Below, one piece after another: positions 11,480 through 49,795 of a stretch of 64,000 nt of DNA. The position numbers and the translations under genes were made by a program. Below the pieces are notes generated by a model, which did no database searches, was not told the origin of the DNA, and worked only from the letters and a program-made list of their open reading frames with translations. The number at the start of each line of letters is the position of its first letter. Position 1 is the first letter of the stretch. The DNA comes from a virus. The stretch spans positions 32,001 to 96,000 of IMG/VR virus record IMGVR_UViG_3300047558_000077, one strand, 5' to 3'.

Positions 11480-11892
11480 CTGATCTATTCAAAGATGTCA
11501 TTCCATCCATTCTACAGACTAAGAAGAATGTTCTGGAGAATGAAAAAGACTATAGTGCTTTCGTGGTGAATCGGGCCCTCTCGTTTCACTACGATTGCGT
11601 TTTACAAGTCAATGAGATGAACCAGTATCCAGGTTTGCCTGCTAATATGCAATATCACTATTTGCTAAATAGCATTAGAGGCTATAAACGCCCTTTTAGA
11701 AAATGGGAAAAGCGTGAAACCATTGAGGACTTGGAAGCCGTAAAAGAGTATTACAACTACTCTAACGAAAAGGCCAAAGAAGCATTGGTTTTGCTAAACG
11801 CTACCCAGTTAGAACAAATAAGAAAAGAACTAAACAAAGGTGGCATAAATGACAGCAAACCTAGAAGACTTCGTGGAAGTAAGACTTCCTGA
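11464..11892 (+). CDS. gp62: Clamp loader small subunit
   Basis: YSAFVVNRALS, NEMN, VKEYYNYSNEKAKEAL, KGG; position before regA; true start may be TTG 11476. Confidence 0.9.
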   Translation: MVAILTDLFKDVIPSILQTKKNVLENEKDYSAFVVNRALSFHYDCVLQVNEMNQYPGLPANMQYHYLLNSIRGYKRPFRKWEKRETIEDLEAVKEYYNYSNEKAKEALVLLNATQLEQIRKELNKGGINDSKPRRLRGSKTS

Positions 11893-12262
11893 TCCTCAAG
11901 CCTTCTTGAAAGTGAAGGAGACTTTGACTCGTATTGGTGTAGCATCTAAGAAAGATAAAACTCTCTATCAGTCATGTCATATATTACATAAGCAGGGTCA
12001 TTATTACTTGGTACACTTCAAAGAGATGTTTATGTTGGACGGTAAGCCAACAGACTTCTCCGAAGAAGATCGTGGCAGAAGAAACACGATTGCTAATCTA
12101 TTAGCAGAATGGGGTCTAGTCACGCTAGTCGATAAAACTAAATCACAAGAGCCACTAACACCTCTAAACCGCATCAAGATAATCTCTTATGGTGAGAAAG
12201 GTGAGTGGAATCTAGTCGCCAAGTATTCTCTTGGTAAGAAAAGATTTTCAGATACAGAATAG
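11849..12262 (+). CDS. regA: Translational repressor RegA (T4 type)
   Basis: FLKVKETLTRIGVAS, LYQSCHILHKQG, VHFKEMF, RRNTIANLL. Confidence 0.95.
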   Translation: MTANLEDFVEVRLPDPQAFLKVKETLTRIGVASKKDKTLYQSCHILHKQGHYYLVHFKEMFMLDGKPTDFSEEDRGRRNTIANLLAEWGLVTLVDKTKSQEPLTPLNRIKIISYGEKGEWNLVAKYSLGKKRFSDTE

Positions 12263-24669: not shown

Positions 24670-25659
24670 ATGCGTGTATTGGTCACTGGAAGTGAAGGAT
24701 CGTTGGGACAGGCTGTCATACCACTATTATTGAAAAAAGGTTATGTTGTGACCGGCGTAGATAATCTTGCCAGATACGGTGAAAGATTCGGTTTAGCAGG
24801 TAATGATTATACGTTTATCAAGTGCGATCTAACTGACGGACTTAGTGTCCAGAGATTGATGGATCAGGTAAAACCGGATTATATTCTACAAATGGCTGCC
24901 ACTATTTACGGGGTTTCAGGGTTCAATAAGTATTGCGGTGAGATGTATAAGGACATTGCCCTACACGATAATGTCCTTCGTGCTGCTGCTAATCATAATG
25001 TTGAAAAGGTAATCTACATTTCATCTTCTATGGTGTATGAGAACTGCCCACAAGACATTGCTTATCCGGTTCCTGAGGATATTGTTGATAGTAATCCAGC
25101 ACCTTATACAGACTATGGTCTATCAAAGTTTGTCGGTGAGCGTGTATCTAAGGCATATCTAAAGCAGTATGGTCTAAAGTATACTATCTGGCGTCCATTC
25201 AACATCATTACACCATATGAAAGAAGTGAGTCCGAAGAAGTTGGTATCTCACATGTCTTTGCCGACTACATCAAGAATATCGTTATTGAAAAGAAGAAGC
25301 CACTACCTATTCTAGGTGATGGTTATCAGATTCGGTGCTTCACATGGATTGATGAAGTTGCTGCGGCTATTGCTGACTATTCATTTGATACTAAGACCGA
25401 CAATCAGATTTACAATCTCGGTAATGCTGAACCAATCTCTATGCGTGTTCTAGCAGAGAAGATCAAAGACATTGCCTCTAAAGAATATAATCTGATTGAA
25501 GATTACTTCCTTCTATATGAGACTATCGGTGATTATCAGAACGATGTTCGTGTCCGTATTCCAGATTGTGAAAAAGCCAAGAATGAACTTGGTTGGGAAG
25601 CACGAATGAAAGTTGATGACTCTATTCGTATGTGTCTCAAGTATGTTGCGGAGAAATAA
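24670..25659 (+). CDS. NAD-dependent sugar epimerase/dehydratase/decarboxylase (extended SDR)
   Basis: VTGSEGSLG, ISSSMVY, YGLSK, RPFN, GDGYQIRCFT. Confidence 0.85.
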   Translation: MRVLVTGSEGSLGQAVIPLLLKKGYVVTGVDNLARYGERFGLAGNDYTFIKCDLTDGLSVQRLMDQVKPDYILQMAATIYGVSGFNKYCGEMYKDIALHDNVLRAAANHNVEKVIYISSSMVYENCPQDIAYPVPEDIVDSNPAPYTDYGLSKFVGERVSKAYLKQYGLKYTIWRPFNIITPYERSESEEVGISHVFADYIKNIVIEKKKPLPILGDGYQIRCFTWIDEVAAAIADYSFDTKTDNQIYNLGNAEPISMRVLAEKIKDIASKEYNLIEDYFLLYETIGDYQNDVRVRIPDCEKAKNELGWEARMKVDDSIRMCLKYVAEK

Positions 25660-26606: not shown

Positions 26607-26970
26607 GAGAGACAAATGGGAGAAAGTGAGAAATCTGATTACAGCGGATATTTCTCATGCCGTTCATTATTCGTGCGATAAACTATACGAACATAACGTG
26701 GCGCTTCGGTATCTCCAATACATGGAAGCACTAGAGATAGAAGAAAACTGGCACAATGAATATATTAGATACATGGAAAAGGGTCTAGAATGAAACTTAT
26801 GAGAGTCTTAGACAAAACATTTAAGATTAATAAATCAATGCGACCCGAAATGATTTTAACAGTAGCATTTCCTTTGGAATATGCCAAAGATGAATCAGAA
26901 GTTATTTCTGGTGAAGAGTTTTTAAAACAGTTTAATGAAGCAATGGCAGAATACGAAAGAGAGAATGAAA

Positions 26971-28683
26971 ATGAAGTATCATTCACCGATTGATTCAACA
27001 CTATTTCTTCTCCGTGATGTTCTAGGTTTTGACAATGAACTAACGGAGCCGATTCTTACTGAGGCGGCCAAGTTGTGTGAAGAAGAAATCGCACCGACTA
27101 ATCAGATTGGTGATAAGGAAGGTTGTGTTAGAGTTCCTAAAGTAACCATTTTAAACGAAGATAAAACGATTAAAGAAACTCGTGAATCTTTCGTAAGAGT
27201 TCCAGAATGTTTCAAAGAACCATACAAAAAGTTTGCCGAAGGAGGTTGGCTTGGTCTATCAGTTCCTGAAGAGTATGGTGGACAAGGCCTACCATATACA
27301 CTTGCGGCTGCGGTCAACGAGTTTGTATCCTCGTCTAACATGGCTTTTAGTATGTTTCCTGGCCTTACTCGTGGAGCTATCCAAGCACTCTTAGCATCTG
27401 GTAATGATTTCCAGAAGCATGAGTATATACCTAGATTAGTATCTGGTGAATGGACTGGAACAATGTGTCTTACTGAACCACATTGCGGTACCGACCTTGG
27501 ACTGCTAAAGACAAAAGCGGTGCATGATTATGACGACTGGTATAAGATTACAGGTCAGAAAATCTTTATCTCTGGTGGTGACCACGATCTAACAGATAAT
27601 ATTCTTCATCTTGTTCTAGCAAGAGTTGAAGGTGATTCAGAAGGCGTCAAAGGTATTAGTCTGTTTGCTGTACCTAAAAATCTAGGAGAAAATAATAATG
27701 TCTCTTGCGGTTCTATTGAAGAAAAGATGGGCATTCATGGTTCACCAACATGCGTTATGAACTTTGATGGTGCTTATGGTATTCTAATCGGTGAACGCTG
27801 TAAGGGTCTCCAAGCAATGTTCGTTATGATGAACGAAGCAAGACTAGGTGTTGCTGTTCAAGGACTATCACAATCGGAGTTGGCTTATCAAAATGCTTTG
27901 GAATATGCTAAAGAAAGACTTCAAGGGACTAAACTTTCGAATCGATTGGGGGAGACTACTACTCGGAATCCGTGTAGTATTATACATCACCCTGACGTTC
28001 GCCGTATGCTACTTGATGTTAGGTCTATCAATGAGGCTGCTAGGCTTCTAATACTAGAAGCGGCGATGTTGGTTGATAAAGCCGACGAAGAATCACAAGA
28101 TCGCCTTGGTCTAATGACTCCTGTTCTAAAGGGTGTATTGACAGACTATGGTTTTGAAAATGCTGTAAAGATGCAACAGGTTTGGGGTGGCCATGGATAT
28201 GTTCGTGACAATGGTATGGAACAAATCGTAAGAGACGCCAGAATTGCCATGATCTATGAAGGTGCTAATGGTATTCAGGCACTTGATCTTGTTGGCCGTA
28301 AGTTGCCTAAGAACATGGGTCGTGCTATTACTAAGTTCTTCAAGGATAGTGAAAGTTTCTTGTCGGGTGCATATGATAAAGATATCAATCCAATCGTGCA
28401 GCCAATGACAAGAGCATTGAATGAACTAAAACAAGCAACAGAATGGTTGATGCATAATGCTATCAAGAATCCAAACAATGCTGGTTCGGCATCTTATGAT
28501 TATATGAAGATGATGGGACTTGTTATGCTTGGTATGGCACACATCAAGATTTGTCTAAAGACAAATGACAAGACACGCCATGACAATGCTACATATTTCA
28601 TGGAGCGTATTGTACCAGAGACAAGTTTTCTGTTGAAGCGTATCAAAGAAGGTTCTGATACTATGATGAAAGCGGAGTTTTGA
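26971..28683 (+). CDS. Acyl-CoA dehydrogenase (long, C-terminal-domain type)
   Basis: GTMCLTEPHCGTDLG, ITGQKIFIS, EKMGIHGSPTC, QVWGGHGY, RIAMIYEGANGIQALDL. Confidence 0.93.
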   Translation: MKYHSPIDSTLFLLRDVLGFDNELTEPILTEAAKLCEEEIAPTNQIGDKEGCVRVPKVTILNEDKTIKETRESFVRVPECFKEPYKKFAEGGWLGLSVPEEYGGQGLPYTLAAAVNEFVSSSNMAFSMFPGLTRGAIQALLASGNDFQKHEYIPRLVSGEWTGTMCLTEPHCGTDLGLLKTKAVHDYDDWYKITGQKIFISGGDHDLTDNILHLVLARVEGDSEGVKGISLFAVPKNLGENNNVSCGSIEEKMGIHGSPTCVMNFDGAYGILIGERCKGLQAMFVMMNEARLGVAVQGLSQSELAYQNALEYAKERLQGTKLSNRLGETTTRNPCSIIHHPDVRRMLLDVRSINEAARLLILEAAMLVDKADEESQDRLGLMTPVLKGVLTDYGFENAVKMQQVWGGHGYVRDNGMEQIVRDARIAMIYEGANGIQALDLVGRKLPKNMGRAITKFFKDSESFLSGAYDKDINPIVQPMTRALNELKQATEWLMHNAIKNPNNAGSASYDYMKMMGLVMLGMAHIKICLKTNDKTRHDNATYFMERIVPETSFLLKRIKEGSDTMMKAEF

Positions 28684-29867
28684 TATGTTTAAGAATGAAA
28701 AACTAAACAAGATTTGTGATGCTGTATCTAAGGATGATCCACAGAATAAGATGACGACTATGTTTCTTTTGAAACTCGTGGAAAATTTGATTGAGGCCAG
28801 AGATGATGGTGAGCGTCTAAGACTTGCTCATGATATAATAAATGTGATGTCTGAATGATAGGAGCAAACATTGATTGAACTGTTTAAAGAGCAATTAGAC
28901 GGAAGTCCCAATATAACAAAAGTTTGCTATGCGGTTCGCCAACTAAAGCCACATTCGTTAGAAATTCATTTTTGTAAATTAAATGAAATAGAAAAAATAT
29001 GCGAACAGTATGAAAATTGGAAAGTAACTTACGATATTCTTGGAAGTATTCCAATTTTCAACGAGGTAATAATGGAATGATTTTTGATTACAAAGAAGAT
29101 ACCTGTAAGTATGTTGTCCATTCCAAGAAGAACGGAAACGAGTTTGCTATTTCGTTTATCTCCATGGATCAAGTTGCTGAATATGTAGAGACGGAAGAAA
29201 ATGTAACTGGTGTTTGGAAAGTAACAGCACAGAAGATTCCACCAGAAGTTTATAAGAGAAGAGTGAAAGATGTGGTTCAGTAATCATCATAACGGTATCA
29301 TCGTTCGCCGTAGATACAACTATAAACATCTAAGGCCATATGATACGTGTCTTTGTAGCACATGGTCGAGACACATTAGAACAGTCAATAAGAAAATGAG
29401 GAAAAAGTATGAGAATACATGACTGTAAATACAACGTTCGTCGTAGACCTAAACATTTTAAGGAAAGGCCATATAATAATTTTGCCCAAGCGCCTTGGTC
29501 ATGGTTTATTACATGTGTCAATTTGACAAAGAGAAAAAAGTATGTATGATGAAATATTTGATGATAATCTCAATGGTGGTATTCCCCACGGTTACTAATG
29601 CTCAACTAGCAATGACCACGGACAATCATTCTTTGACACAATCTACTGCCAATCCTCCGTTGAGATCGCCAGCGTATTCTTGGCAGCCAAATACAAGTGA
29701 TGGTGCCACACAGGGTTGGCAGTCAACTGTTCCGACTGGTGGTGCCAGAGGAATCGTAACAGAATGGGAAGAAGTTGAGTGACGAAAAATGAACGCAGAT
29801 TGTCTAGAAATGAATGTCTTTCAGACGAGTTTTGTGTCATTATAGCGACAAGTAGTCAATGGTGACT

Positions 29868-29875
29868 ACTAAATA
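29868..29875 (+). promoter_or_regulatory. Phage late promoter upstream of pmoC
   Basis: ACTAAATA, the variant also found before the endonucleases, holin and head genes; SD AGGAG before the ATG. Confidence 0.6.
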
Positions 29876-29930
29876 AAAGACCGGGCATCCTATCCCGGAG
29901 ACCGGTCAATCACAAAATAGGAGTGAATAT

Positions 29931-30704
29931 ATGAGCGTTGTAAAACAAACGGCAACTGCCGTGGCCACCGACGTTGATACACAGGTCGTTGACCTACGAG
30001 GCATGTGGATTGGGCTCGCCCTTCTAAATGTCTTTTATCTAATCGTCCGTATCTATGAACAGGTTTATGGCTGGCGTGCTGGTCTTGACTCGTTCGCACC
30101 AGAGTTTCAGACATATTGGATGTCTATTCTTTGGACAGAAATCCCACTAGAACTTATCTCAGGTCTTGGTCTTGCAGGTTATCTTTGGAAGACTAGAACC
30201 CGTGACTTCTCTCTTGTAACACCAAGGGAAGAAATGCGCCGTCTAGCGGTGTTGGTTCAGTGGTTGGTTGTTTATGCTGTTGCTATCTACTGGGGTGCAT
30301 CGTTCTTCACCGAACAGGATGGTACCTGGCATATGACAGTCATTCGTGATACGGATTTCACTCCGTCCCACATCATTGAGTTCTACATGAGTTACCCAAT
30401 CTACTCAATCATTGCTGTTGGTGCGTTCTTCTATGCTCGCACTCGTATCCCTTACTTTGCTCAGGGATATAGCCTAGCATTCTTGATTGTTGCTATTGGA
30501 CCATTCATGATCATCCCGAACGTTGGCCTGAATGAGTGGGGCCACACCTTCTGGTTCATGGAAGAACTATTCGTTGCTCCTCTACATTGGGGCTTCGTGT
30601 TCTTCGGCTGGATGGCTCTAGGTGTCTTTGGCGTTGTGCTACAGATCCTAGGTCGTGTCCACAGTCTCGTTGGACGAGATGGTGTAAGACTCCTTACCGA
30701 ATAA
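29931..30704 (+). CDS. pmoC: Particulate methane monooxygenase subunit C, Methylocystis/Methylosinus type
   Basis: GLDSFAPEFQTYW, WGASFFTEQDGTWHMTVIRDTDFTPSHIIEFY, PNVGLNEWGHTFWFMEELFVAPLHWGF. Confidence 0.98.
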   Translation: MSVVKQTATAVATDVDTQVVDLRGMWIGLALLNVFYLIVRIYEQVYGWRAGLDSFAPEFQTYWMSILWTEIPLELISGLGLAGYLWKTRTRDFSLVTPREEMRRLAVLVQWLVVYAVAIYWGASFFTEQDGTWHMTVIRDTDFTPSHIIEFYMSYPIYSIIAVGAFFYARTRIPYFAQGYSLAFLIVAIGPFMIIPNVGLNEWGHTFWFMEELFVAPLHWGFVFFGWMALGVFGVVLQILGRVHSLVGRDGVRLLTE

Positions 30705-30712
30705 ATGTCAAC

Positions 30713-30773
30713 AGGGGTGCGACGCAATGTCGCACCCTTTTCTATTGACAACGGCAATATCCATTGATATAAT
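30713..30773 (+). promoter_or_regulatory. pmoC terminator hairpin that is also a GTGCGAC-N5-GTCGCAC palindrome, followed by a sigma70 promoter
   Basis: GGGTGCGAC-GCAAT-GTCGCACCC then TTTT; TTGACA 30745, 17 bp, TATAAT 30768. Confidence 0.7.
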
Positions 30774-30796
30774 GCAAAGACACTGGAGATTCCAAT

Positions 30797-31207
30797 ATGC
30801 CGTTGCTTCCCGCTTATTATACCACGACTAATCTTCGGAAGCGCAAGTCTAAAAAGACTAATACTTCCGAACATACTAAGTGGCTAGAGTCCATGGGTCT
30901 TACGCCCAAGCAGATAAAAAGTAAAAAGTCAAAGAATACTTCCTGGAAGTCTGACTATACTGCCTCTTTGCATGTCGACCGTTCCACAAAACATTACGAA
31001 AAATCTATTCAAGAGGTGTGTAACGCACCTGCTAATGCCACGGCTAATCGTTCCGTGATGGCTAATCTACATAAAGAGAACGAAGAAACTCGCAAGGCTA
31101 TTCTTGATAAAGCCAAGCGGGTCATGCCACTTTACAATAAGGGTGGACTCCAGGTTCTCTCTGAGTCTGATGATCTCAAAGCACTCAACAAAACTGTGAG
31201 GGTATAA
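30797..31207 (+). CDS. Basic hypothetical protein
   Basis: Good SD; C-terminal PLYNKGGLQ motif seen in T4-like phage hypotheticals. Confidence 0.6.
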   Translation: MPLLPAYYTTTNLRKRKSKKTNTSEHTKWLESMGLTPKQIKSKKSKNTSWKSDYTASLHVDRSTKHYEKSIQEVCNAPANATANRSVMANLHKENEETRKAILDKAKRVMPLYNKGGLQVLSESDDLKALNKTVRV

Positions 31208-35733: not shown

Positions 35734-38285
35734 TGAATAAATTTTATACGAATGTTGAGATATGGGGCGGCAAAATCCTATATCGTGGTGTTGAAAACGG
35801 TGTCTGTGTTCGATACAAGGTAGATTACAACCCTACCTTGTTCGTACCTTCCGATAAGCCAACCAAATACACGACAATCTATGGTGAGTATGTTGGGCCT
35901 GTAAAGCCTGGCACCATCCGTGATTGTCGTAATTTTGTTAAGCAATATGATGGTGTTGACAACTTCAAGATTTATGGTAATCAACGTTATCAATATTGCT
36001 TTATTGCCGATGAGTTTGAGGGAACCGTCGATTGGGATATTTCAAAGATTAAAATTGCTAACATCGATATCGAAGTCGGTGAACCTGACGGTGGTGGATT
36101 TCCTGAGCCAGATAAGGCCGACGGTGCGATAACTGCCATTACAATCAAGATGAACGGCTATTTCACCACTTTTGGTTGTGGTGAATATGAGAACACACGT
36201 TCTGATGTGAGATATTTTAAATGTATGGATGAGTTCGATCTCATTCGTAAGTTTCTAGGTTGGTGGCAAAGTGAGTATCCTGATATCATTACTGGATGGA
36301 ATGTCGAAGTCTTCGATATTCCTTATCTTATCAATCGTATCGTAAAACTACTAGGTGAGAGTGAAGCAAAGAAGTTGTCACCATGGAATGTTATTAACAC
36401 CAAGGTTCTGGAAATTGGTGTGAATCGTCGTGGTCAAGGATATTCTATTTTAGGTGTTGCCACACTAGATTTACTTTCACTATATAGAAGATACGCTCCT
36501 GATGGAAAATCACAAGAGTCTTATAAATTGGACAACATCGCTCATGTTGAGTTGGGCGAACGCAAACTGTCCTACGAAGAATATGGTTCTCTACACAATC
36601 TTTACAAAGAGGACTATCAAAAGTTCATCGATTATAACATCAAAGACGTTGATCTAGTTGATCGTATCGATGATAAAGGTAAGTTTATTGAACTAGCACT
36701 AACTCTATCTTATGATAACAAGTGCAACTACGAGGACGTGTTCGCACAGGTCCGCATGTGGGACGTTATTTGTTTTCACCATTTGAAATCAAAGAACATA
36801 GTTGTCCCTCCTATTGAGAAACACGAGAAGGAGGCTGCCTATGTTGGCGCATACGTTAAAGATCCTATTATTGGCTTCCATGATTGCGTGGTTAGTTTCG
36901 ACGTTAATTCAGAGTATCCGTCTGTTATTATGGGGTCCAATATCTCTCCTGAGACGATTGTTGAACCTGATTCTTATAGCGATGCTATGCGGGCTATTGT
37001 TGCCTCTGGTGTCAGTGTTGATAAACTTCTCAATCGTTCCATTGATACATCATGCCTAAAGGCAGACAATGTTTGTTTGACTGCTAACGGTCAGTTCTAT
37101 CGCCGTGATAAGCAAGGCTTCATGCCTGAAATGGTCGAGAAGATGTTCGCCGATCGTAAGGTATATAAGAAGAAGATGCTTGAGGCGCAAGCAGAGTATG
37201 AGACAGAGACCGATTCCGATAAGAGAGCGGAACTAAAAAACAAGATTGCGAGATATAACAATCTACAACTCTCTAAGAAAGTATCGCTAAACTCCTTATA
37301 TGGTGCTATGGGTTCAAAGTATTTTAGATTCTTTGACCTTCGTAATGCCACTGCCGTCACGACTACGGGTCAACTTAGCATTCGTTGGATCGAAAACGAT
37401 ATCAATAAGTATCTAAACAAACTATTGAAAACGGAGAAAGATTATGTTATTGCGGTCGATACTGACTCGGTGTATCTCAATCTTGCAGAGGTGGTTAGGA
37501 AAACTTTTAGCACACAGAATGTCGATCCAATTCGTGGAATCTCATTCATGGACAAGGTCTGCGAAACTGCTATTCAGCCAGTTATTGATAAGTCTTGCAA
37601 CCTACTTGGGGATTATACTAATGTCTATCAACAAAAGATTGTCATGAAGCGAGAGGTCTTGGCAGATAAAGCAATCTGGACTGCCAAGAAGCGTTACATT
37701 CTAAACGTCCATAACTCCGAAGGCGTGCAATACGCTAAGCCTAAGAAGAAAGTTATGGGCCTTGAAATGATCAAGAGTTCCACACCTACAGCATGTAGAG
37801 ACAAACTAAGAGAGGTTGTTGATGTTATCTTTGATGAAGACGAGGCGGCTGTCCAGTCTTTTATTCAAACTTTCCGTGGTGAATTTCAAAATCTTCCTCT
37901 GGCAGATATTGCTTTTCCTCGGGGAGTTAATGGTCTTGATAAATATAGTGATTCGAAATCTATATATGCATCCGGTTGTCCTATCCATGTTCGTGGTTCT
38001 CTCGTATATAATCATCTTTTACACATTCATAATCTTACTTCTAAGTATCCACTAATCCTGTCGGGTGAAAAGATCAAGTTCATTCATCTGAAAGAACCTA
38101 ATACAGTTCAATCAAACATCATAGCTTTTCCACAAGGTAATATACCGAAAGAATTTGACTTGCATAAGTATATAGATTATAATCTACAGTTTCAAAAGGC
38201 ATTTCTAGATCCACTTATCATCATTCTTGGTGCTATTGGCTGGAAGCCAGAACGAAGCGCAAGTTTGGAGGACTTCTTCTCATGA
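35733..38285 (+). CDS. gp43: Family B DNA polymerase
   Basis: DIEV exonuclease motif, SFDVNSEYPS, KVSLNSLYG, DTDS, KKRY. Confidence 0.97.
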   Translation: MNKFYTNVEIWGGKILYRGVENGVCVRYKVDYNPTLFVPSDKPTKYTTIYGEYVGPVKPGTIRDCRNFVKQYDGVDNFKIYGNQRYQYCFIADEFEGTVDWDISKIKIANIDIEVGEPDGGGFPEPDKADGAITAITIKMNGYFTTFGCGEYENTRSDVRYFKCMDEFDLIRKFLGWWQSEYPDIITGWNVEVFDIPYLINRIVKLLGESEAKKLSPWNVINTKVLEIGVNRRGQGYSILGVATLDLLSLYRRYAPDGKSQESYKLDNIAHVELGERKLSYEEYGSLHNLYKEDYQKFIDYNIKDVDLVDRIDDKGKFIELALTLSYDNKCNYEDVFAQVRMWDVICFHHLKSKNIVVPPIEKHEKEAAYVGAYVKDPIIGFHDCVVSFDVNSEYPSVIMGSNISPETIVEPDSYSDAMRAIVASGVSVDKLLNRSIDTSCLKADNVCLTANGQFYRRDKQGFMPEMVEKMFADRKVYKKKMLEAQAEYETETDSDKRAELKNKIARYNNLQLSKKVSLNSLYGAMGSKYFRFFDLRNATAVTTTGQLSIRWIENDINKYLNKLLKTEKDYVIAVDTDSVYLNLAEVVRKTFSTQNVDPIRGISFMDKVCETAIQPVIDKSCNLLGDYTNVYQQKIVMKREVLADKAIWTAKKRYILNVHNSEGVQYAKPKKKVMGLEMIKSSTPTACRDKLREVVDVIFDEDEAAVQSFIQTFRGEFQNLPLADIAFPRGVNGLDKYSDSKSIYASGCPIHVRGSLVYNHLLHIHNLTSKYPLILSGEKIKFIHLKEPNTVQSNIIAFPQGNIPKEFDLHKYIDYNLQFQKAFLDPLIIILGAIGWKPERSASLEDFFS

Positions 38286-39862
38286 GTAAACCAATTAATA
38301 AAATAGTTATCGTCGGAGGTGGTTCTGCTGGTTGGATGACAGCGGCCACGCTCATTCAAAGATTAGATAATCGTGAGATTGTTCTAATTGAAGATCCTAA
38401 TACGCCTACAGTCGGCGTCGGTGAATCCACACTTGGGTTTATCAATGAATGGATGCGTCTACTCGGCATTAAAGACACAGACTTTATGAGAGAGTGTAAT
38501 GCGACTTATAAGATGTCTATTAGCTTCACAGACTTTTATAAGAAGGGTTCAGGAACCTTTCATTATCCCTTTGGCGGTGTTGATATCACAGGAAACACAT
38601 ATGCAAAGAATGACTGGTATCTAAAGAAATTTCTGCATCCAGAAACACCAATCTCCGACTATGCGGATAATGTATATCCTATCATGTCATTGGTGAACGC
38701 TAATAGAATGACAAGTGAATCGATTTTACCTGGTTACAATTTTCACAATGATGTTGCGTTTCATTTTGATGCTGCCAAGTTTGGTGTTTGGTTGCGTGAG
38801 AAGTATGCTATTCCAAGGGGTGTTAAGTATATTCAAGGTAAAGTCAGACACATTCCAGTAAACGAAGACGGTGTAGAAAAACTAATACTTGATAGTGGTG
38901 AAGAGATCACCGCCGATTTGTATATCGATTGCACAGGTTTTAGATCAATCATTCTCGGTGAAGCGTTGCATGAACCTTTCATCTCATATCATGACATTCT
39001 ACCTAACAATTCTGCCTGGGCCGCACAAGTACCATACATTGATAAAAAGAAACAGATTGTTCCTTGGACTGATTGTCATGCAATAGAAAACGGCTGGGTA
39101 TGGAGTATTCCATTGTGGAGCCGTATGGGTATGGGCTATGTGTATTCTGACAGATACATCGATGATGCAGGTGCCTTGCAAGAGTTCAAGGATCATCTAA
39201 ACAAATATGGAATGTTAAAAGAAGATCAACATTTTCATAACATCAAATTTAGAGCCGGTATTCATAATCGTATTTGGGTGAAGAATGTTGCAGCTATTGG
39301 TTTGTCAGCGGGCTTTATCGAACCTCTAGAAAGCAATGGATTGTTTAGTGTTCATATGTTTCTTGTTAGATTGCTTCGTGCAATCGATAGAGACAAAGAT
39401 GAACATCTTGTTTCAGAATATGATCGCAATAGTTACAACTGGTCATGTCGAACAATGTTTGATGGCTTTTCACAGTTTGTTGCGTTGCATTATGCCCTAT
39501 CACACAGAACCGATACAGAGTATTGGAAAGATGTTGGTAGAAGAGACTATTGTGATGTTGATAAGTCGCTTCAAAGAGGAGTATCTAGAAACGAGTCATT
39601 CATTTCAGCTTTTGATTATAAGTATAACACTACACGATTTGGTGATGATGGCTTGAATGCTATTGCAACAGGACTAAATTACTTCTCAACAGATATGCAT
39701 TTTATCCATGCAATGAATGCATCAAATGTGAATCTTGCCGAGGAGTTTGATGTTATAACCAAACGACTAAACGCAAAGAAAGAGCTATGGGATTATATAG
39801 CTTCAAAATGTCCAACTACATACGATTTTTTAAAAGAAAGGATCTATCATGGCGAAGACTAA
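38282..39862 (+). CDS. Flavin-dependent (tryptophan-halogenase-like) halogenase
   Basis: GGGSAG, GVGEST, ATYK catalytic Lys, WVWSIP, FIEPLES. Confidence 0.88.
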   Translation: MSKPINKIVIVGGGSAGWMTAATLIQRLDNREIVLIEDPNTPTVGVGESTLGFINEWMRLLGIKDTDFMRECNATYKMSISFTDFYKKGSGTFHYPFGGVDITGNTYAKNDWYLKKFLHPETPISDYADNVYPIMSLVNANRMTSESILPGYNFHNDVAFHFDAAKFGVWLREKYAIPRGVKYIQGKVRHIPVNEDGVEKLILDSGEEITADLYIDCTGFRSIILGEALHEPFISYHDILPNNSAWAAQVPYIDKKKQIVPWTDCHAIENGWVWSIPLWSRMGMGYVYSDRYIDDAGALQEFKDHLNKYGMLKEDQHFHNIKFRAGIHNRIWVKNVAAIGLSAGFIEPLESNGLFSVHMFLVRLLRAIDRDKDEHLVSEYDRNSYNWSCRTMFDGFSQFVALHYALSHRTDTEYWKDVGRRDYCDVDKSLQRGVSRNESFISAFDYKYNTTRFGDDGLNAIATGLNYFSTDMHFIHAMNASNVNLAEEFDVITKRLNAKKELWDYIASKCPTTYDFLKERIYHGED

Positions 39863-43118: not shown

Positions 43119-43195
43119 GGTTCCATAGCTCAACAGGATAGAGCAACCGCCTTCTAAGCGGTAGGTTGAAGGTTCGAATCCTTCTGGGACCGCCA
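43119..43195 (+). tRNA. tRNA-Arg(TCT)
   Basis: Cloverleaf, CCA. Confidence 0.95.
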
Positions 43196-43200
43196 TTTAT

Positions 43201-43291
43201 GGGGGTGGGTGTAAGACACAAGAGGGACTTATAAACCCTTTAGCGGCCGATTACCGTTCTCGACCAGGAGCGTTACCTGGCACCCCTACCA
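43201..43291 (+). tRNA. Atypical tRNA-Ile(TAT)-like gene
   Basis: 7-bp acceptor plus ACCA, 3-nt D-loop, CTTATAA loop, long extra arm, T-loop AGCGTTA. Confidence 0.6.
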
Positions 43292-43306
43292 ACTTTGGAG
43301 TATGAC

Positions 43307-43453
43307 ATGGAAAACTTTGAACTGCTCTATCAGTGTTATCTATCTGGTCAAATGTCTGAAATGCAGTGGCAACTACATTTGAAGTGTGACGAAGGCCTAC
43401 AAGATTGGTATAAATGTAAACAGACTGCCTACTCTATAGAAGCGATAGAATAA
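43307..43453 (+). CDS. 48-aa hypothetical protein
   Basis: GGAG SD; MENFELLYQCYLSGQ... Confidence 0.5.
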   Translation: MENFELLYQCYLSGQMSEMQWQLHLKCDEGLQDWYKCKQTAYSIEAIE

Positions 43454-43455
43454 GG

Positions 43456-43750
43456 GTGCGTCATTCTATCGCAGTTTTTTGTGGTTGACTTCTGAATCCG
43501 TTTGGACTATATTACGTGAACGGTGGGACGAAACAGAGAGACAGGAACACGGTGCGACAACCTGACGCACTTTTTTCTGAAAAAAGTTCTTGACTTCCTG
43601 TTTTTGATGCTATATAGTATGCGAACGATGAAACGAAAGAGGGAAACAGGAAATCAGAGTGCGACGGAATGTCTCACTTTTTCCTAAAAAAAAGTTCTTG
43701 ACTTCCTGTTTGAGTCGTGTATAATACTCAAACGATGAAACAAGGAGACA
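43456..43750 (+). repeat. Three tandem ~100-bp units: palindrome + T-run + TTGACT promoter + short purine-rich transcript
   Basis: Units start 43456, 43552, 43659; -35 at 43485, 43590, 43698. Confidence 0.8.
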
Positions 43751-43754
43751 CGGA

Positions 43755-43940
43755 ATGAAAGATGAAGCCGTGAAACGAGACTATTTCTGGGTGGTAGAAG
43801 TTACCGATCATAATGGTCGTGTAAACTATCGCAAGGAATATCATAATAAAGATGGTTCGGCATTTCGTGATTATGCTCGGTTGAAAACGCAGGGTACCGT
43901 TTGTATCCAGCGTAAGTTCAAAGAGTATAAGATTGCCTAA
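43755..43940 (+). CDS. Small hypothetical protein
   Basis: AAGGAG SD, driven by the third promoter of the array. Confidence 0.6.
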   Translation: MKDEAVKRDYFWVVEVTDHNGRVNYRKEYHNKDGSAFRDYARLKTQGTVCIQRKFKEYKIA

Positions 43941-43977
43941 TCAACCGCTGTTTGACAATTGAATCAGGATTGTATAA

Positions 43978-44053
43978 GGTGCCGTGCCCGGAATGGTTAC
44001 GGGGCGGTCTGCAAAACCGTTTTATGTGGGTTCAACTCCCATCGGCACCTCCA
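43978..44053 (+). tRNA. tRNA-Cys(GCA)
   Basis: Cloverleaf, U73, CCA. Confidence 0.93.
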
Positions 44054-44193
44054 ATACTCTTAGAAAGATGTAGGCTCGTGCGGGCAAGGCGCCAATAAAA
44101 CTGATGCCCAAACCTTGTGTCACAATAGGTTCTGCTCTGGATTGCAACTATCAGAATGACTGACATAGTAAACCTACATCTCTCTAAGAGTAT
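44054..44193 (+). ncRNA. Unassigned structured RNA closed by a 20/21-bp stem
   Basis: ATACTCTTAGAAAGATGTAGG ... CCTACATCTCTCTAAGAGTAT. Confidence 0.6.
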
Positions 44194-44196
44194 TAT

Positions 44197-44275
44197 TCCG
44201 GAGAATCCGAGCAAGGTGCATGGACGTGACTGTTAATCACTGGTTAGTGGGGTTCGATTCCCCAATCCGGAGCCA
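44197..44275 (+). tRNA. tRNA-Asn(GTT)
   Basis: Cloverleaf, CCA. Confidence 0.9.
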
Positions 44276-44280
44276 ATTAC

Positions 44281-44355
44281 CGCCCCTTCGTCTAGTGGCT
44301 AGGATAACTGCCTTTCAAGCAGTAGAAACGGGATCGAAACCCGTAGGGGTGACCA
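44281..44355 (+). tRNA. tRNA-Glu(TTC)
   Basis: Cloverleaf, CCA. Confidence 0.9.
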
Positions 44356-44360
44356 ATAAT

Positions 44361-44436
44361 GGCCGTGTAGGTTTCTGGGGAAACCACTTGTCTGTCTAAC
44401 AAGTTTAGGTGGGTTCGATCCCCATCACGGTCGCCA
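44361..44436 (+). tRNA. tRNA-Asp(GTC)
   Basis: Cloverleaf, G73, CCA. Confidence 0.9.
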
Positions 44437-44450
44437 TTTGTATAGTATAT

Positions 44451-44526
44451 GGACCGTTAGCTCAGTTGGTAGAGCAGCCGACTCTTAATCGGCTTGTCGC
44501 AGGTTCGAACCCTGCACGGTCTACCA
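44451..44526 (+). tRNA. tRNA-Lys(CTT)
   Basis: Cloverleaf, CCA. Confidence 0.95.
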
Positions 44527-44531
44527 TTTAT

Positions 44532-44607
44532 GGATCCGTAGCACAATAGGTGGTGCAAGGGACTTTTAATCCCAAGGCTGTCGGTTCGAGCCCGACCGGA
44601 TCCTCCA
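44532..44607 (+). tRNA. tRNA-Lys(TTT)
   Basis: Cloverleaf, CCA. Confidence 0.92.
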
Positions 44608-44611
44608 ATAT

Positions 44612-44685
44612 GCGGCAGAAGTGTTACGGTAGCACAATAGGCTTCCACCCTGTTAGCGTGGGTTCGACTCCCACTTGCCGCTCCA
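44612..44685 (+). tRNA. tRNA-Gly(TCC)
   Basis: Cloverleaf, U73, CCA. Confidence 0.9.
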
Positions 44686-44689
44686 GTAT

Positions 44690-44781
44690 AGATACATCAT
44701 ATTCTGGACATATCGGAGCACCGAGGTCATATGTTATGTCGTCATTGACGGCGAGATTAGAGACTTCTGCATGATGTATCT
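44690..44781 (+). ncRNA. Unassigned structured RNA (11-bp closing stem, internal hairpins)
   Basis: AGATACATCAT ... ATGATGTATCT. Confidence 0.5.
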
Positions 44782-44788
44782 TTTTTAT

Positions 44789-44915
44789 AGATAAACTAGG
44801 TATCTCTTCGAGAGAGAAATAGGTGGGTAAAGAGTTGAAATACTCCATAGAGCCTCTAAGCAGATTGAAACGAGGTAGTCAACACTATGCAGTTTGATCC
44901 TGCACTAGTTTATCT
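44789..44915 (+). ncRNA. Unassigned structured RNA with a T-arm-like hairpin
   Basis: AGATAAACTAG ... CTAGTTTATCT; TGCAG-TTTGATC-CTGCA just before the 3' strand. Confidence 0.55.
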
Positions 44916-44922
44916 TTTTATT

Positions 44923-44996
44923 GCGGATGTAGTTTAATGGTAAAACGGTACCTTGCCAAGGTACAGTCGATGGTTCGATTCCATCCGTCCGCTCCA
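44923..44996 (+). tRNA. tRNA-Gly(GCC)
   Basis: Cloverleaf, CCA. Confidence 0.95.
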
Positions 44997-44999
44997 TTA

Positions 45000-45166
45000 C
45001 TCGTCCGAGGAGTTGGATACCTTGGGCTACCATATTACACGGGTGCGCTGTGTGGTATGGGTATAGGTGGCGGCAACCTAAACGTCCGTCTTAGCGCATC
45101 GTCTTATCCAGGCAAATCTGCCACAACGAAATAGTGGCTGGGAGATGGTAGTAACTCCCTGCGAGA
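45000..45166 (+). ncRNA. Unassigned GC-rich multi-stem RNA
   Basis: Nested pairings GGAGTT/AACTCC, CTACCAT/ATGGTAG, GGTGCGCT/AGCGCATC, GCCAC/GTGGC. Confidence 0.5.
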
Positions 45167-45171
45167 TTTAT

Positions 45172-45252
45172 CTCCACGTATCCACCTTCGCTACGAACGA
45201 AGAGTAAGGTAACTGGATGCAAATGCAGGTTCGAATCCTGTCGTGGAGTCCA
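45172..45252 (+). tRNA. Topologically rearranged tRNA-Arg(ACG)-like gene
   Basis: Acceptor CTCCACG/CGTGGAG-T-CCA, normal T-arm; anticodon arm nested inside the TCCA/TGGA D-stem. Confidence 0.65.
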
Positions 45253-45348
45253 GGTCGCTGGATTACTAATCGATGGTTCCTAGGCCTATCGAGGTGTGTA
45301 CCAGTAGTGGAAGCCCGTCACCACTATAAGAAAGCGTGGCTGCTATTC

Positions 45349-45423
45349 GCTGGTAGGTCGGCAAGATGTCGAGGCGCTCTCATAAGGCGTTTAAGGTTGG
45401 TTTAATTCCAACTATCAGCACCA
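45349..45423 (+). tRNA. tRNA-Met/Ile2(CAT)
   Basis: Cloverleaf, CCA. Confidence 0.8.
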
Positions 45424-45429
45424 GTTTAT

Positions 45430-45504
45430 TGCGGTCAGGTGGTCCGGAGACCATTCTTGTCTCATAAGCAAGAGAGCCATGTTCGACTCATGGGTCCGCA
45501 TCCA
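45430..45504 (+). tRNA. tRNA-Met(CAT)
   Basis: Cloverleaf with one U-U acceptor mismatch, CCA. Confidence 0.8.
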
Positions 45505-45565
45505 ATGTTGGTAAAGTGGTTCAGAGAACCGCATTTTACTAAATAAGGGTAGGAGGTACCTACCA

Positions 45566-45883
45566 ATGGTCGCAAGAAACAAATACGGTATAAAGAAAAC
45601 TAATGAAGAGGTATTTGTAGAAAACTCTACATATCCGAGACATAGGTTAAAAGAACGGATCATAAAAGAAGAAATGATCCCGTATGTGTGCCATGAATGT
45701 GGTATGGATGACAACTGGAACGGTAAGAAAATCGTTTTACAGTTAGACCATATAAATGGTGTGAATGATGATAATAGAATGAATAACCTTCAGTTCTTGT
45801 GTCCTAATTGTCATTCACAAACTCATACATACGCAGCAAAGAATAGACATAACTCTGCGAGAAAACCAAAGAGATATGTTTGA
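45566..45883 (+). mobile_element. HNH endonuclease inserted in the tRNA array
   Basis: CHEC, LQLDHING..DNRMNNLQFLCPNCH; late promoter 45538 and SD hairpin GGTAGG/CCTACC. Confidence 0.85.
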
Positions 45884-45884
45884 T

Positions 45885-45958
45885 GTTGGTGTAGTGTAAC
45901 GGTAGCACAACGGCCTCCAAACCCGTTAGTAGGGGTTCAAATCCTCTCACCTTCGCCA
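45885..45958 (+). tRNA. tRNA-Trp(CCA), acceptor with two U-U mismatches
   Basis: GTTGGTG/CACCTTC-G-CCA; CTCCAAA loop. Confidence 0.8.
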
Positions 45959-45965
45959 GTTTTAT

Positions 45966-46041
45966 CTAGGTGTAGCTCAATTGGCAGAGCATCCCGTTTG
46001 GGGCGGGAAGGCTGTTGGTTCAAGTCCAGCCACCTAGACCA
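45966..46041 (+). tRNA. tRNA-Pro(TGG)
   Basis: Cloverleaf, CCA. Confidence 0.94.
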
Positions 46042-46353
46042 TTTACGAAAGTGACATAGATATGGATACAGAATATCTAAAACGCCAAGCAATCTTTAGA
46101 CTTGTCGTGTTTTTTGTTATCGCTGTTGTAATAGGATTTATAGTGAGTGATATTAACATTCTAATGAGCCAATGAGGTATAACTATGTTTAAGATTACAG
46201 AAGAGACTAAAAAAGAAGCTGTTGATAAGATGATAGAAATTCTTTTATTTGAAAGAATTGATAATAGAGAAAAGTTTGAAGAAGCATTTGATGCTGCCGT
46301 CGCTATCGTAATGAAGCAGTTTGGTATTAGTATAGATGTATAACATATAATAT

Positions 46354-46444
46354 GGAGAGTTGGCTGAGTGGTCGAAAGCGGCCGTTTGCTAAATGGTTGA
46401 ACCCTAATACGGTTCCATAGGTTCGAATCCTATACTCTCCGCCA
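46354..46444 (+). tRNA. tRNA-Ser(GCT)
   Basis: Long variable arm, G73, CCA. Confidence 0.93.
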
Positions 46445-46448
46445 ATTC

Positions 46449-46537
46449 GGAGTAAGTAACAGGCAAGGAGTCTGCACCGCTTGGAAAGCGGATGGTTCCC
46501 GAAAGGGAATAGGTGTCGGATACCTACTACTCCGCCA
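46449..46537 (+). tRNA. tRNA-Ser(GGA), divergent
   Basis: Long variable arm, atypical T-loop, GCCA. Confidence 0.75.
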
Positions 46538-46544
46538 ATTCAAT

Positions 46545-46633
46545 GGATGGTTAAGCAGAGCGGCCTCTGTCCTCGCCTCGAAAGCGAAGGGTGCCTGTAA
46601 AGGCATGGTGATCGACACATCAGCCATCCGCCA
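46545..46633 (+). tRNA. tRNA-Ser(CGA)
   Basis: Long variable arm, GCCA. Confidence 0.8.
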
Positions 46634-46719
46634 ATTGTGCCTTCCATCAACGGCGTCCCCGTTAGGACACAGCAGGTTAGCCAGTCCCCTGTTGGAAGAA
46701 ATGTCTGGCACAGTTTTAT

Positions 46720-46794
46720 GCGGGCTTAGTTCAGAGGTAGAACATCGGTGTTACATACCGAGTGTCGGTGGTTCGATTCCATCAGCCCGCACCA
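46720..46794 (+). tRNA. tRNA-Val(TAC)
   Basis: Cloverleaf, CCA. Confidence 0.92.
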
Positions 46795-46799
46795 TTTAT

Positions 46800-46876
46800 G
46801 CCCCTCTAGCCCAACTGGTAGAGGTGTCTGACTTAGAATCAGAAGGTTCTCAGTTCGAATCTGAGGAGGGGCACCA
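46800..46876 (+). tRNA. tRNA-Leu(TAG), short variable loop
   Basis: Cloverleaf, A73, CCA. Confidence 0.9.
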
Positions 46877-46880
46877 ATTT

Positions 46881-46956
46881 GCGTTCTTGGTGTAGGTGAT
46901 CCGCACGCCTGTTTGAAGCACAGAAGGACTTAGTTTGATTCTAAGAGAACGCACCA
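46881..46956 (+). tRNA. tRNA-Phe(GAA)
   Basis: Cloverleaf, CCA. Confidence 0.82.
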
Positions 46957-46961
46957 GTTAT

Positions 46962-47038
46962 GCCCTCGTAGCCCAATCGGCAGAGGCAGTTGGCTCAAAC
47001 CCAATACAGTGTCGGTTCGAATCCGACCGAGGGCACCA
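46962..47038 (+). tRNA. tRNA-Leu(CAA), short variable loop
   Basis: Cloverleaf, A73, CCA. Confidence 0.9.
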
Positions 47039-47044
47039 ATATAT

Positions 47045-47118
47045 GCTGGCATAGTGTAAAGGTAGCACACGAGATTGTGGATCTTGTAGACTAGGATCGT
47101 TACCTGGTGCCAGTACCA
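47045..47118 (+). tRNA. tRNA-His(GTG), no G-1, G1:U72, A73
   Basis: Cloverleaf, preceded by T, ends T-A-CCA. Confidence 0.88.
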
Positions 47119-47126
47119 GGGCGGCC

Positions 47127-47201
47127 GCTGCCGTAGCTCAGTGATAGAGCATTCCCTTGGTAAGGGAAAGGTCGAAGGTTTGATTCCTTCCGGCAGCACC
47201 A
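47127..47201 (+). tRNA. tRNA-Thr(GGT)
   Basis: Cloverleaf, CCA. Confidence 0.92.
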
Positions 47202-47450
47202 TAAATATAATGTTGAACGATCAAGTTCGCATAGGAGTCTTTTAGATGATCGTCATTTCAGACAAGGCCAATAGTAAAGTAATAATTTCAGAAGAAGTCA
47301 ATAGAGAACTTAGTCAGCTTGTGATGACCACACTAAAGACAAAGTTTCCGAATATTGATGAAACAACTCTAACAGATATCATGACAACGCAGAGAGATAT
47401 TTACATCGACTTTCTAAATGAAAGATATAATACGGTAGAACAATGGAACA

Positions 47451-48029
47451 ATGAGAAGACAATACTCTGGTAACATATTAAACTTATGTGATCGACTAAA
47501 AGTAAGAATATATGATTTAGTAGGTTATGATAGCAAAAACAATCCAGAAGGTTGTTTGACAGGATACACCACAGCACACTTCAATAATCCTGTAGGCCGT
47601 AGATTGGATAAGTTGCCGGAGTTTAAAGAACCTTTAGATTTTGTTTTGAATACAGCAAAAGATTATGCCGTTGAAAACGGCTTAGACAAAGATCATCTAA
47701 CGACTGTCATGTGTTGGGTAAATGTCTATCCTCCTGGAACATTCATTAGTGCCCATAAACATATAACATTCGATAATCTGTTTACGTCCGTATTTTACTT
47801 ACAGAGTAAAGAAGACTCTGGGCAATTATATGTTGCCGACGATCCTAATCCAAAGAATATAAAGCAAGGTGAAGTGTATATTTTTCCTTCCAATATAGAT
47901 CATTGGACAACACCAAATGAAAGTGTTCAGGATAGAATAGTTTTCGGATGTGACTTTGTTTACTATCATATAGACGACCAAACAGTGGATAGAATCCTAT
48001 CTAACTGGCTTGACCGAAAAAAGACTTGA
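47451..48029 (+). CDS. Putative 2OG-Fe(II) oxygenase
   Basis: WVNVY, HKH, SVFYL, IFPSNIDH, RIVF. Confidence 0.75.
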   Translation: MRRQYSGNILNLCDRLKVRIYDLVGYDSKNNPEGCLTGYTTAHFNNPVGRRLDKLPEFKEPLDFVLNTAKDYAVENGLDKDHLTTVMCWVNVYPPGTFISAHKHITFDNLFTSVFYLQSKEDSGQLYVADDPNPKNIKQGEVYIFPSNIDHWTTPNESVQDRIVFGCDFVYYHIDDQTVDRILSNWLDRKKT

Positions 48030-48080
48030 CATTCCGTTTCGGGTGTGCTATTATTAGACATAATGAGAAAGGAAAACGGA

Positions 48081-48557
48081 ATGAATAAGGTTTGGATTTT
48101 TGATATTGACGGAACGCTTGCTAACGTCCATCATCGTTGGCATCATATCAACGGTGGTGGTAAAAAGAACTGGGACGCATTCTTTGCCGATCAAATCAAG
48201 GACGAACCTTATCAGCCAGTGATGGATATCCTTCATGCTCTTGTGTCACATTATGTAGACGGAAGAAATAAGGTAATCTTTGTTACTGCTCGGGATGAAC
48301 GATTTCGGGAAGTCAGTTTACAGTGGCTAAATCGTCATATCAAGTATAAGGTTAGTGACGAAGACCTGTATATGCGTCCTGCTGGTAATCGTGAAAACGA
48401 TGACCTTATCAAGGTGCGTATTATCAAGAATTGGTTACAGCGGCATCCTGCTTATGAAGTCGGTGCGATCTTCGAAGATCGGCATCGGATTATCGATGCG
48501 TTTCGTGCCGAAGGCTGGTATACTTTTGAGTGTAACCAGCAGCGTTTAGAGTTTTAG
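48081..48557 (+). CDS. HAD phosphatase (T4 PseT/PNK 3'-phosphatase-like)
   Basis: FDIDGTLA, VTAR, LYMRPAG, FEDR; own promoter TTGACA 48026 / TATTAT 48049. Confidence 0.85.
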   Translation: MNKVWIFDIDGTLANVHHRWHHINGGGKKNWDAFFADQIKDEPYQPVMDILHALVSHYVDGRNKVIFVTARDERFREVSLQWLNRHIKYKVSDEDLYMRPAGNRENDDLIKVRIIKNWLQRHPAYEVGAIFEDRHRIIDAFRAEGWYTFECNQQRLEF

Positions 48558-48563
48558 AGTTAT

Positions 48564-48637
48564 TGTCCCTTAGCTCAAAGGTAGAGCAATGTGCTGATAA
48601 CACATAGACACTGGATCGTTACCAGTAGGGACAACCA
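48564..48637 (+). tRNA. tRNA-Ile(GAT)
   Basis: Cloverleaf, CCA. Confidence 0.9.
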
Positions 48638-48641
48638 ATAT

Positions 48642-48727
48642 GGGGGACTATTTGGCTAAGGACGCCAAGGGGTCTGTAAAACTCAAGCCTATGTGCTGGC
48701 CCGGATCGTTACCGGGGTCCCCTACCA
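48642..48727 (+). tRNA. tRNA-Tyr(GTA)
   Basis: Long variable arm, CCA. Confidence 0.8.
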
Positions 48728-48733
48728 AATTAC

Positions 48734-48790
48734 GGGCGAGAGCAAGGATGCATCCTAGGTTATAGGGGTTCGATTCCCCCTCGTCCACCA
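48734..48790 (+). ncRNA. 57-nt mini tRNA-Ala-like RNA (G3:U70, A73, no D-arm)
   Basis: GGGCGAG/CTCGTCC-A-CCA, GGGG-TTCGATT-CCCC T-arm, AGGA-TGCA-TCCT hairpin. Confidence 0.65.
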
Positions 48791-48796
48791 GTTTAT

Positions 48797-48870
48797 TCGG
48801 GGTTAGTTTAATGGTAGAACGTCGGTCTTTGGAACCGACTGTCTGGGTTCGAGTCCTAGACCCCGATCCA
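48797..48870 (+). tRNA. tRNA-Gln(TTG)
   Basis: U1:A72, cloverleaf, CCA. Confidence 0.92.
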
Positions 48871-49123
48871 AATACCGGTTTCGGTCGCCCGGTCTGTTGC
48901 TGGCAACATAAGCAAGGCACGATTAAGTTGCGTATGCTGCTTATGCCAAGGGCAAGATACAGATAAAACCGAGCCTTTTTGTTGTAAGGAATACACTATG
49001 AACAAGGTGAAAGTTTCTCTTAGAGAAATCATGGAAGATGATAATCATCCACTTATGCTGAAATGGGTAGATGAGTTTCACTCAACACTTAGGGAAAAAA
49101 TCCAAAGTTATATAATGAAATTT

Positions 49124-49198
49124 TCAGGGATAGTTTAACAGGTAAAACCACGGACTCTGACTCCGTATTTCTTGGTTCGAATCCAGGTCCCTGATCCA
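49124..49198 (+). tRNA. tRNA-Gln(CTG)
   Basis: U1:A72, cloverleaf, CCA. Confidence 0.92.
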
Positions 49199-49215
49199 AC
49201 ACTAAAGGATATATT

Positions 49216-49710: not shown

Positions 49711-49720
49711 ATAGTTATAC

Positions 49721-49795
49721 GGGCCTGTAGTTCAGGGGGAGAACGTCTGCTTTGCAAGCAGAATGTCGGCGGTTCGATTCCGTCCAGGTCCACCA
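49721..49795 (+). tRNA. tRNA-Ala(TGC)
   Basis: G3:U70, cloverleaf, CCA. Confidence 0.94.

Follow-up and report, generated by a model that had tools for sequence, protein, structure and literature searches.

Phages that carry pmoC were described from freshwater lakes by Chen et al. 2020 (Nat Microbiol; PMC7674155), with an alpha-type group of 159–175 kb. In that study, late expression was deduced from the co-expression of pmoC with structural genes in three gamma-type phages of >300 kb, only the Asp/His/His site (CuC) of the protein was checked, and promoters, leaders and terminators receive no mention (PMC7674155). Publication in 2020 already covered the gene, this group of phages and the probable lateness of its expression, and only regulatory detail is added here, namely a sequence-level basis for late expression consisting of a predicted gp55-type box together with a leader hairpin and a terminator of the gene's own. 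These details leave the published picture unchanged; phage-borne pmoC bears on the effect of viruses on methane release from lakes.

A second described system of close likeness is the cyanophage psbA gene, encoding D1. As with phage pmoC, psbA encodes a host-derived core membrane subunit of an energy-harvesting enzyme, is carried alone in T4-like phages and is subject to purifying selection, so that the likeness rests on the type of subunit, its carriage and its selection, and not on late promoters. D1 has a documented damage-repair cycle. That cycle belongs to D1, and a replacement of PmoC during infection could be proposed by analogy with it.

With respect to regulatory signals, the late promoters of T4, with the consensus TATAAATA, are recognised by gp55 together with gp33 and the gp45 clamp. 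Besides the T4 box, cyanomyoviruses use late promoters of the form NATAAATA (PMC2984593). In both groups the late promoter is an 8-bp box devoid of a −35 element and located 5–75 nt before late genes, as is also the case at the locus analysed here.

The DNA under study is a window of 64,000 nt, corresponding to bases 32001–96000 of the IMG/VR record IMGVR_UViG_3300047558_000077, and positions below are those of the window unless otherwise indicated. We read its pmoC, with a probability of roughly 0.7, as a stand-alone Methylocystis-type auxiliary metabolic gene, carried in a cassette of its own by a T4-like pmoC-phage and expressed late, whose product supports the pMMO of the host.

The phage genome and its PmoC

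The source record is a single virus genome of 172,364 bp and 40.8% GC, rated 100% complete by CheckV. It is a complete T4-like myovirus, which encodes the portal, scaffold, protease, major head protein, sheath, tube and baseplate wedge, as well as the replication and repair proteins gp43 polymerase, gp45 clamp, gp44/62 loader, gp41 helicase, UvsX, UvsY, gp46/47 and RegA. Its 24 tRNA genes include a tRNA-Leu(UAG) that reads CTA, the top Leu codon of both the phage and its pmoC. The closest fit among described genomes is Lake_Mendota_pmoC-phage_3 (172,382 bp, 41% GC), and the alpha-type pmoC-phages of Lake Mendota likewise have a stand-alone Methylocystis-type pmoC and a large cluster of tRNA genes, with an acyl-CoA dehydrogenase gene adjacent to pmoC. 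As in the pmoC-phages already described, pmoC occurs without pmoA or pmoB, the host genome of the gene is that of a large myovirus within the range of 159–527 kb, and the PmoC groups with those of methanotrophs. The initial annotation had stated that such freshwater phages were known, and the genome does match the pmoC-phages that Chen et al. 2020 described from Lake Mendota: it is of the published kind and possibly a published genome. A tblastn search of the GenBank phage collection with PmoC returned no record.

Within the region picked out by the initial annotation (29845–30704), the sole long ORF is pmoC. Its product matches the Pfam family AmoC (PF04896) with an E-value of 2.9e-106 over profile positions 4–244 of 245, and the score of 354.8 bits against a cut-off of 26.7 makes it a full-length family match, as had been annotated. 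The Methylocystis PmoC chains 4phz and 3rfr align end to end with the phage protein (E ~1e-152). Compared with these proteins of Methylocystis sp. M and Methylocystis sp. Rockwell (PDB 3rfr, 4phz), the phage PmoC shows ~90% identity over 253–256 residues and the same CuC and CuD ligands and spacing, but the first ~18 residues differ. Unlike pmoC of these strains, the gene is phage-borne and AT-rich, and neither pmoA nor pmoB lies downstream.

The copper ligands are found in the motifs EQDGTWH (residues 128–134), PSH (145–147), NEWGH (201–205) and PLHW (217–220). D130/H134/H147 make up the CuC site in the pattern Asp-x3-His-x12-His, and N201/H205/H219 the CuD site in the pattern Asn-x3-His-x13-His, so that both triads which the initial annotation had read as intact could be located residue by residue. 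Their spacing equals that of the M. capsulatus pMMO, in which CuC is held by Asp156/His160/His173 and CuD by Asn227/His231/His245 (PMC12576850). All six ligands are invariant in 118 sequences, 52 of them distinct phage and 66 bacterial, and the later-discovered CuD site is thus intact in every phage copy examined. At no residue does the phage PmoC depart from the 95% consensus of alpha-type PmoC.

The absence of pmoA and pmoB, also noted initially, holds for the entire genome. A single AmoC match was obtained in its 172 kb, and the Pfam profiles AMO (PmoA) and Monooxygenase_B (PmoB) gave no match anywhere in it. Searching the genome by tblastn with PmoA and PmoB that came from a Methylocystis-type pmoCAB locus, and that Pfam confirmed as AMO and Monooxygenase_B, yielded hits with E>1 only. 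In a wider set, pmoA was absent from all 69 viral loci having enough downstream sequence.

Several other genes of the window deserve mention. A full-length, four-domain acyl-CoA dehydrogenase is encoded just upstream of pmoC; a partial acyl-CoA dehydrogenase near pmoC, linked to Methylocystis, was reported in related Lake Mendota phages (Chen et al. 2020, PMC7674155). No convincing candidate for pqqA appeared near pmoC, either with Pfam PqqA or in a regex scan for short ORFs. The window also holds genes for a RegA-like translational repressor, a tryptophan-halogenase-like protein (phrog_2928), whose gene adjoins that of the DNA polymerase, and CobT/CobS-like proteins, the latter as seen in cyanomyoviruses.

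Table 1. Coordinates of the pmoC cassette and of other features within the window
Feature	Position	Strand	Remarks
CobT/CobS-like genes	2760–6253		
gp45 clamp gene	8779–9432		phrog_223, 9e-62
RegA-like repressor gene	11849–12262		
Acyl-CoA dehydrogenase gene	26935–28683		
Conserved stretch	29529–29632		82–94% identical in relatives
78-aa ORF	29546–29782		
Upstream helix AGUAGUCA/UGACUACU	29851–29870	+	3′ arm overlaps first bases of promoter box
Late-promoter box ACTAAATA, variant of T4-type TATAAATA	29868–29875	+	Predicted; top upstream 8-mer
Leader hairpin GACCGG...CCGGUC	29879–29907	+	−15.8 kcal/mol, z −3.6
Shine-Dalgarno AGGAG	29919–29923	+	7 nt before ATG; read from the sequence
pmoC CDS	29931–30704	+	257 aa; both copper-site triads intact
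Intrinsic terminator	30713–30745	+	11–12 bp G+C stem (30713–30739), then UUUUCU; z −5.8
Sigma-70 promoter, TTGACA-17-TATAAT with TG	30745–30773	+	12/12 matches; for next gene; end of pmoC cassette
136-aa gene of unknown family	30797–31207		
Tryptophan-halogenase-like gene	38282–39862		phrog_2928
tRNA cluster	43119–51779		

Promoter, leader RNA and terminator of the cassette

The box ACTAAATA is located 55 nt before the pmoC ATG, lacks a −35 element and matches the T4 consensus at 6 of 8 positions, having CT instead of TA/AT at positions 2–3 when compared with the T4 and cyanomyovirus boxes. It is the commonest 8-mer in the −80 to −1 regions of the genes of this genome (10 found, 1.05 expected), and across the genome 19 copies lie on the + (coding) strand against 2 on the − strand. 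Genes preceded by ACTAAATA are those for the portal, the protein encoded after the portal, the scaffold, a gp2-like end protector, an uvsW-like helicase, an exonuclease and two HNH endonucleases, and NATAAATA precedes the sheath, tube, head protease, baseplate and fibre genes; both boxes appear interleaved in the same structural module and are thus used side by side in this genome. Homologues of gp55 (genome positions 24795–25391, phrog_234, 1.7e-53, adjoining gp47 and gp46) and of gp45 are encoded, as required for reading T4 late promoters. Taken as a comparison of sequences, these data support ACTAAATA as a predicted late promoter box of the gp55 type, in agreement with the phage late promoter initially annotated before pmoC. 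A sigma-70 promoter directly upstream of pmoC was also considered and rejected, as none was present on the + strand of 29560–29930, where GCGACA with CTAAAT/TAAATA made a poor match by eye. A literature search did not find pmoC combined with "late promoter", and one on CTAAATA returned primer noise only.

Ten distinct relatives share this leader type, of which seven belong to IMG/VR and three to metagenomes, and in all of them the element CTAAATA is unchanged while the flanks and the bases after the box vary; a pattern scan of IMG/VR for further leader variants gave no new distinct sequences, and a metagenome scan gave the three. In a wider comparison of 48 distinct phage loci, 43 have a box of the form NNTAAATA in the 130 nt before pmoC, compared with 35 of 211 genes in this genome, although the 48 loci share ancestry and amount to at least six unrelated leader types and not to 43 independent cases. 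In most of the other alpha-type pmoC-phages the leader is unrelated and starts with an exact TATAAATA, as it does in many of the gamma type. This second leader family, found at L028:5925–6010 and at most other alpha-type loci (L019–L062), places behind its TATAAATA a long conserved hairpin, AAGAGUGG...CCACUUGA (−26.7 kcal/mol, z −4.2), followed by a small stem over the Shine-Dalgarno. In the gamma-type loci L065, L068 and L074, a sigma-70 promoter TTGACA-17-TATAAT stands directly before or overlaps the TATAAATA upstream of pmoC, an arrangement that suggests both early and late expression of pmoC in those phages.

The leader hairpin begins 4 nt after the box, so that in the predicted late transcript it would form at the 5′ end or close to it. 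In the relatives a hairpin is kept at this leader position with different stems and compensatory changes, and the unrelated TATAAATA leaders also open with a long hairpin; its function is probably that of a 5′ stabiliser of the mRNA. The loop always reads (U)CCUAU and is complementary to an invariant AUAGG(A) of the ribosome-binding region, a possible pairing that lies beyond the reach of covariation because both partners are invariant. At the strong Shine-Dalgarno site, the sequence AATAGGAGTGA is equally invariant in the 10 relatives. At the other end of the gene, the terminator stem is kept in relatives with compensatory changes. The hairpin leader and the gene's own terminator had both been annotated initially and are upheld, the terminator falling just outside the end of the region then delimited. 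The sigma-70 promoter that follows directly serves the 136-aa gene. By its signals, pmoC is predicted to be a late cassette among early-type units. No Rfam match was obtained for 29400–31000 at E≤1.

Upstream of the hairpin there is a further conserved structure, a helix of −9.6 kcal/mol (z −5.0) whose 6-bp core is paired in 60 of 60 cells across the 10 distinct relatives. Two of its pairs have changed on both sides, and one U.G wobble is workable only in RNA of the + strand, which implies transcription that enters this stretch from upstream and continues into pmoC; transcripts running into the gene from upstream in turn weaken a reading of its expression as late only. The helix was rejected as a terminator since no U-run follows. 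Early read-through transcripts of the T4 genes e, soc, 49 and I-TevI are silenced by an RNA structure in which a late promoter is embedded (PMC3014915). Here too, ahead of the gene, the late box shares bases with one arm of a conserved RNA helix, but unlike the T4 structures the helix does not contain the ribosome-binding site, and gating of the gene-e type was discarded, as the predicted unpaired probability of the Shine-Dalgarno and AUG did not differ consistently between the long and the short transcripts of the 10 relatives. It is quite unlikely, though worth stating, that in nearly all pmoC-phages, of the alpha and the gamma type alike, pmoC is a self-contained late cassette with a leader that acts as a regulatory RNA, and that in this lineage the helix/box overlap and the loop/ribosome-binding-site complementarity together make PmoC translation depend on the type of transcript or on a signal. 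If such gating were true, selection would act on when and how much PmoC is made, and PmoC would be a limiting or fast-turnover subunit of pMMO.

The overlap of helix and box also raises the question of whether ACTAAATA is a promoter at all, or a sequence conserved as part of an overlapping palindromic RNA or DNA element, given that the 3′ arm of the helix extends into the box. We consider this very unlikely: the helix takes in just the first three bases of the box (ACT), yet TAAATA, which is outside it, is invariant; the same 8-mer precedes the portal and scaffold genes without any such helix; and an exact TATAAATA is present in unrelated pmoC leaders. A more substantial alternative accepts the box and concerns its meaning, since pmoC might be expressed during most of the infection by read-in of early or middle transcripts from upstream sigma-70 promoters, the late box adding strength and not timing. 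No + strand terminator separates the upstream ORF, ending at 29782, from pmoC, nor is there any in 29782–29868, and the covarying helix with its + strand-only wobble implies transcription from upstream; moreover, the gamma-type relatives place a sigma-70 promoter directly before TATAAATA, and overlapping early and late promoters have been suggested for cyanomyoviruses and RB49 (PMC2984593). Against these points, the sequence directly before pmoC lacks a good sigma-70 site, the nearest ones being at 29450–29550, and the late box itself is invariant. Such prolonged expression is possible, if on the whole doubtful, and expression from the late box as a timing signal is the reading that we prefer.

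Descent of the phage gene and role of its product

The codon usage of pmoC is that of its phage. Its Leu codons comprise 11 CTA and 9 CTT, 20 of 27 in all, whereas bacterial pmoC has no CTA; in the whole phage CTA is the commonest Leu codon, with 35%, and pmoC resembles this overall usage, consistent with the phage-like codons noted initially. GC3 is 0.47 in the phage pmoC and 0.70–0.79 in the bacterial copies. Among phage copies the dN/dS of pmoC ranges from 0.02 to 0.08, and dS is saturated against every bacterial copy. The gene is under strong purifying selection in these phages, and it has been resident in the phage lineage for a long time. The genes flanking pmoC appear in the same order in independent IMG/VR contigs from other samples, with 70–86% nucleotide identity.

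The phylogeny suggested in the initial annotation, built here with 118 sequences, placed the window PmoC in a phage-only clade of nine rows (support 96) inside the Methylocystaceae type. A branch with support 93 keeps the 66 bacterial Methylocystaceae rows together on a single side; the tree was rooted on the long branch leading to gamma-type phage proteins and is not read for a direction of transfer. Closest among the bacteria are operon-type copies in the Lake Mendota MAGs L088 and L091. In the first of these, a Beijerinckiaceae MAG, pmoC is followed by pmoA on a 4.6-kb contig (JBIPLL010000656.1), and no other bacterial PmoC comes as close to that of the window (92% over 240 aa), which makes this MAG a candidate host lineage.

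These data bear on two further explanations of the gene. Assemblies often break at pmoC (Chen et al. 2020, PMC7674155), and a host pmoC could in principle have been joined to the phage contig by misassembly, the chimera that the initial annotation had raised. The phage codon use, the low GC3 and the saturated dS against every bacterial copy, together with the same flanking genes in independent contigs of other samples, speak against it, to the point that its likelihood is close to nil: the contig is not chimeric. The other explanation concerns the protein, which might be a variant subunit that stabilises or retunes pMMO under infection stress, in the manner of the stand-alone pmoC and amoC of bacteria, its divergent cytoplasmic N-terminus changing its behaviour. 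This analogy was proposed by Chen et al. 2020 (PMC7674155), and it would fit with the alignment of bacterial copies only from residue 18–19 onwards, when phage copies align from residue 1, and with the orphan pmoC present in many Methylocystis genomes (33 loci without pmoA). However, there is a clade of bacterial PmoC made up entirely of orphans, 79–83% identical to the window PmoC, and the phage proteins do not group there; they stand outside the bacterial clade, their nearest relatives are the operon-type copies L088, L090 and L091, and the window PmoC is nowhere off the alpha-type 95% consensus. We regard a specialised variant as unlikely, and favour an ordinary PmoC that supports the host enzyme.

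According to this preferred reading of a late, supportive PmoC, the onset of phage DNA replication would be followed by recruitment of the host RNA polymerase to the box by gp55 and the gp45 clamp, and pmoC mRNA would be made in quantity alongside the head and tail mRNAs. The phage PmoC would then enter the intracytoplasmic membranes of the host and join the host PmoA and PmoB, and methane oxidation could be kept or raised, providing energy and reductant while virions are being built. The sequences themselves show the integrity of the gene, its ligands and selection, the lack of pmoA and pmoB, the class and conservation of the motif, the hairpin and the terminator; we infer where and when transcription starts, that the protein assembles with the host subunits, and that the phage profits from it. 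The initial interpretation, in which late expression replaces a damage-prone subunit, is partly supported: its late-promoter part is supported by comparison within this genome and with its relatives, late-only timing is a possibility, and a psbA-like repair role may be suggested by analogy.

As a minor observation, the conserved stretch listed in Table 1 stands out from its flanks, which are 70–80% identical in relatives. It overlaps a promoter-like site, TTGACA-16-TATGAT, and the start of the 78-aa ORF, whose product has no Pfam match and a signal-peptide-like N-terminus, and its conservation includes phages in which the stretch lies ~3 kb from pmoC.
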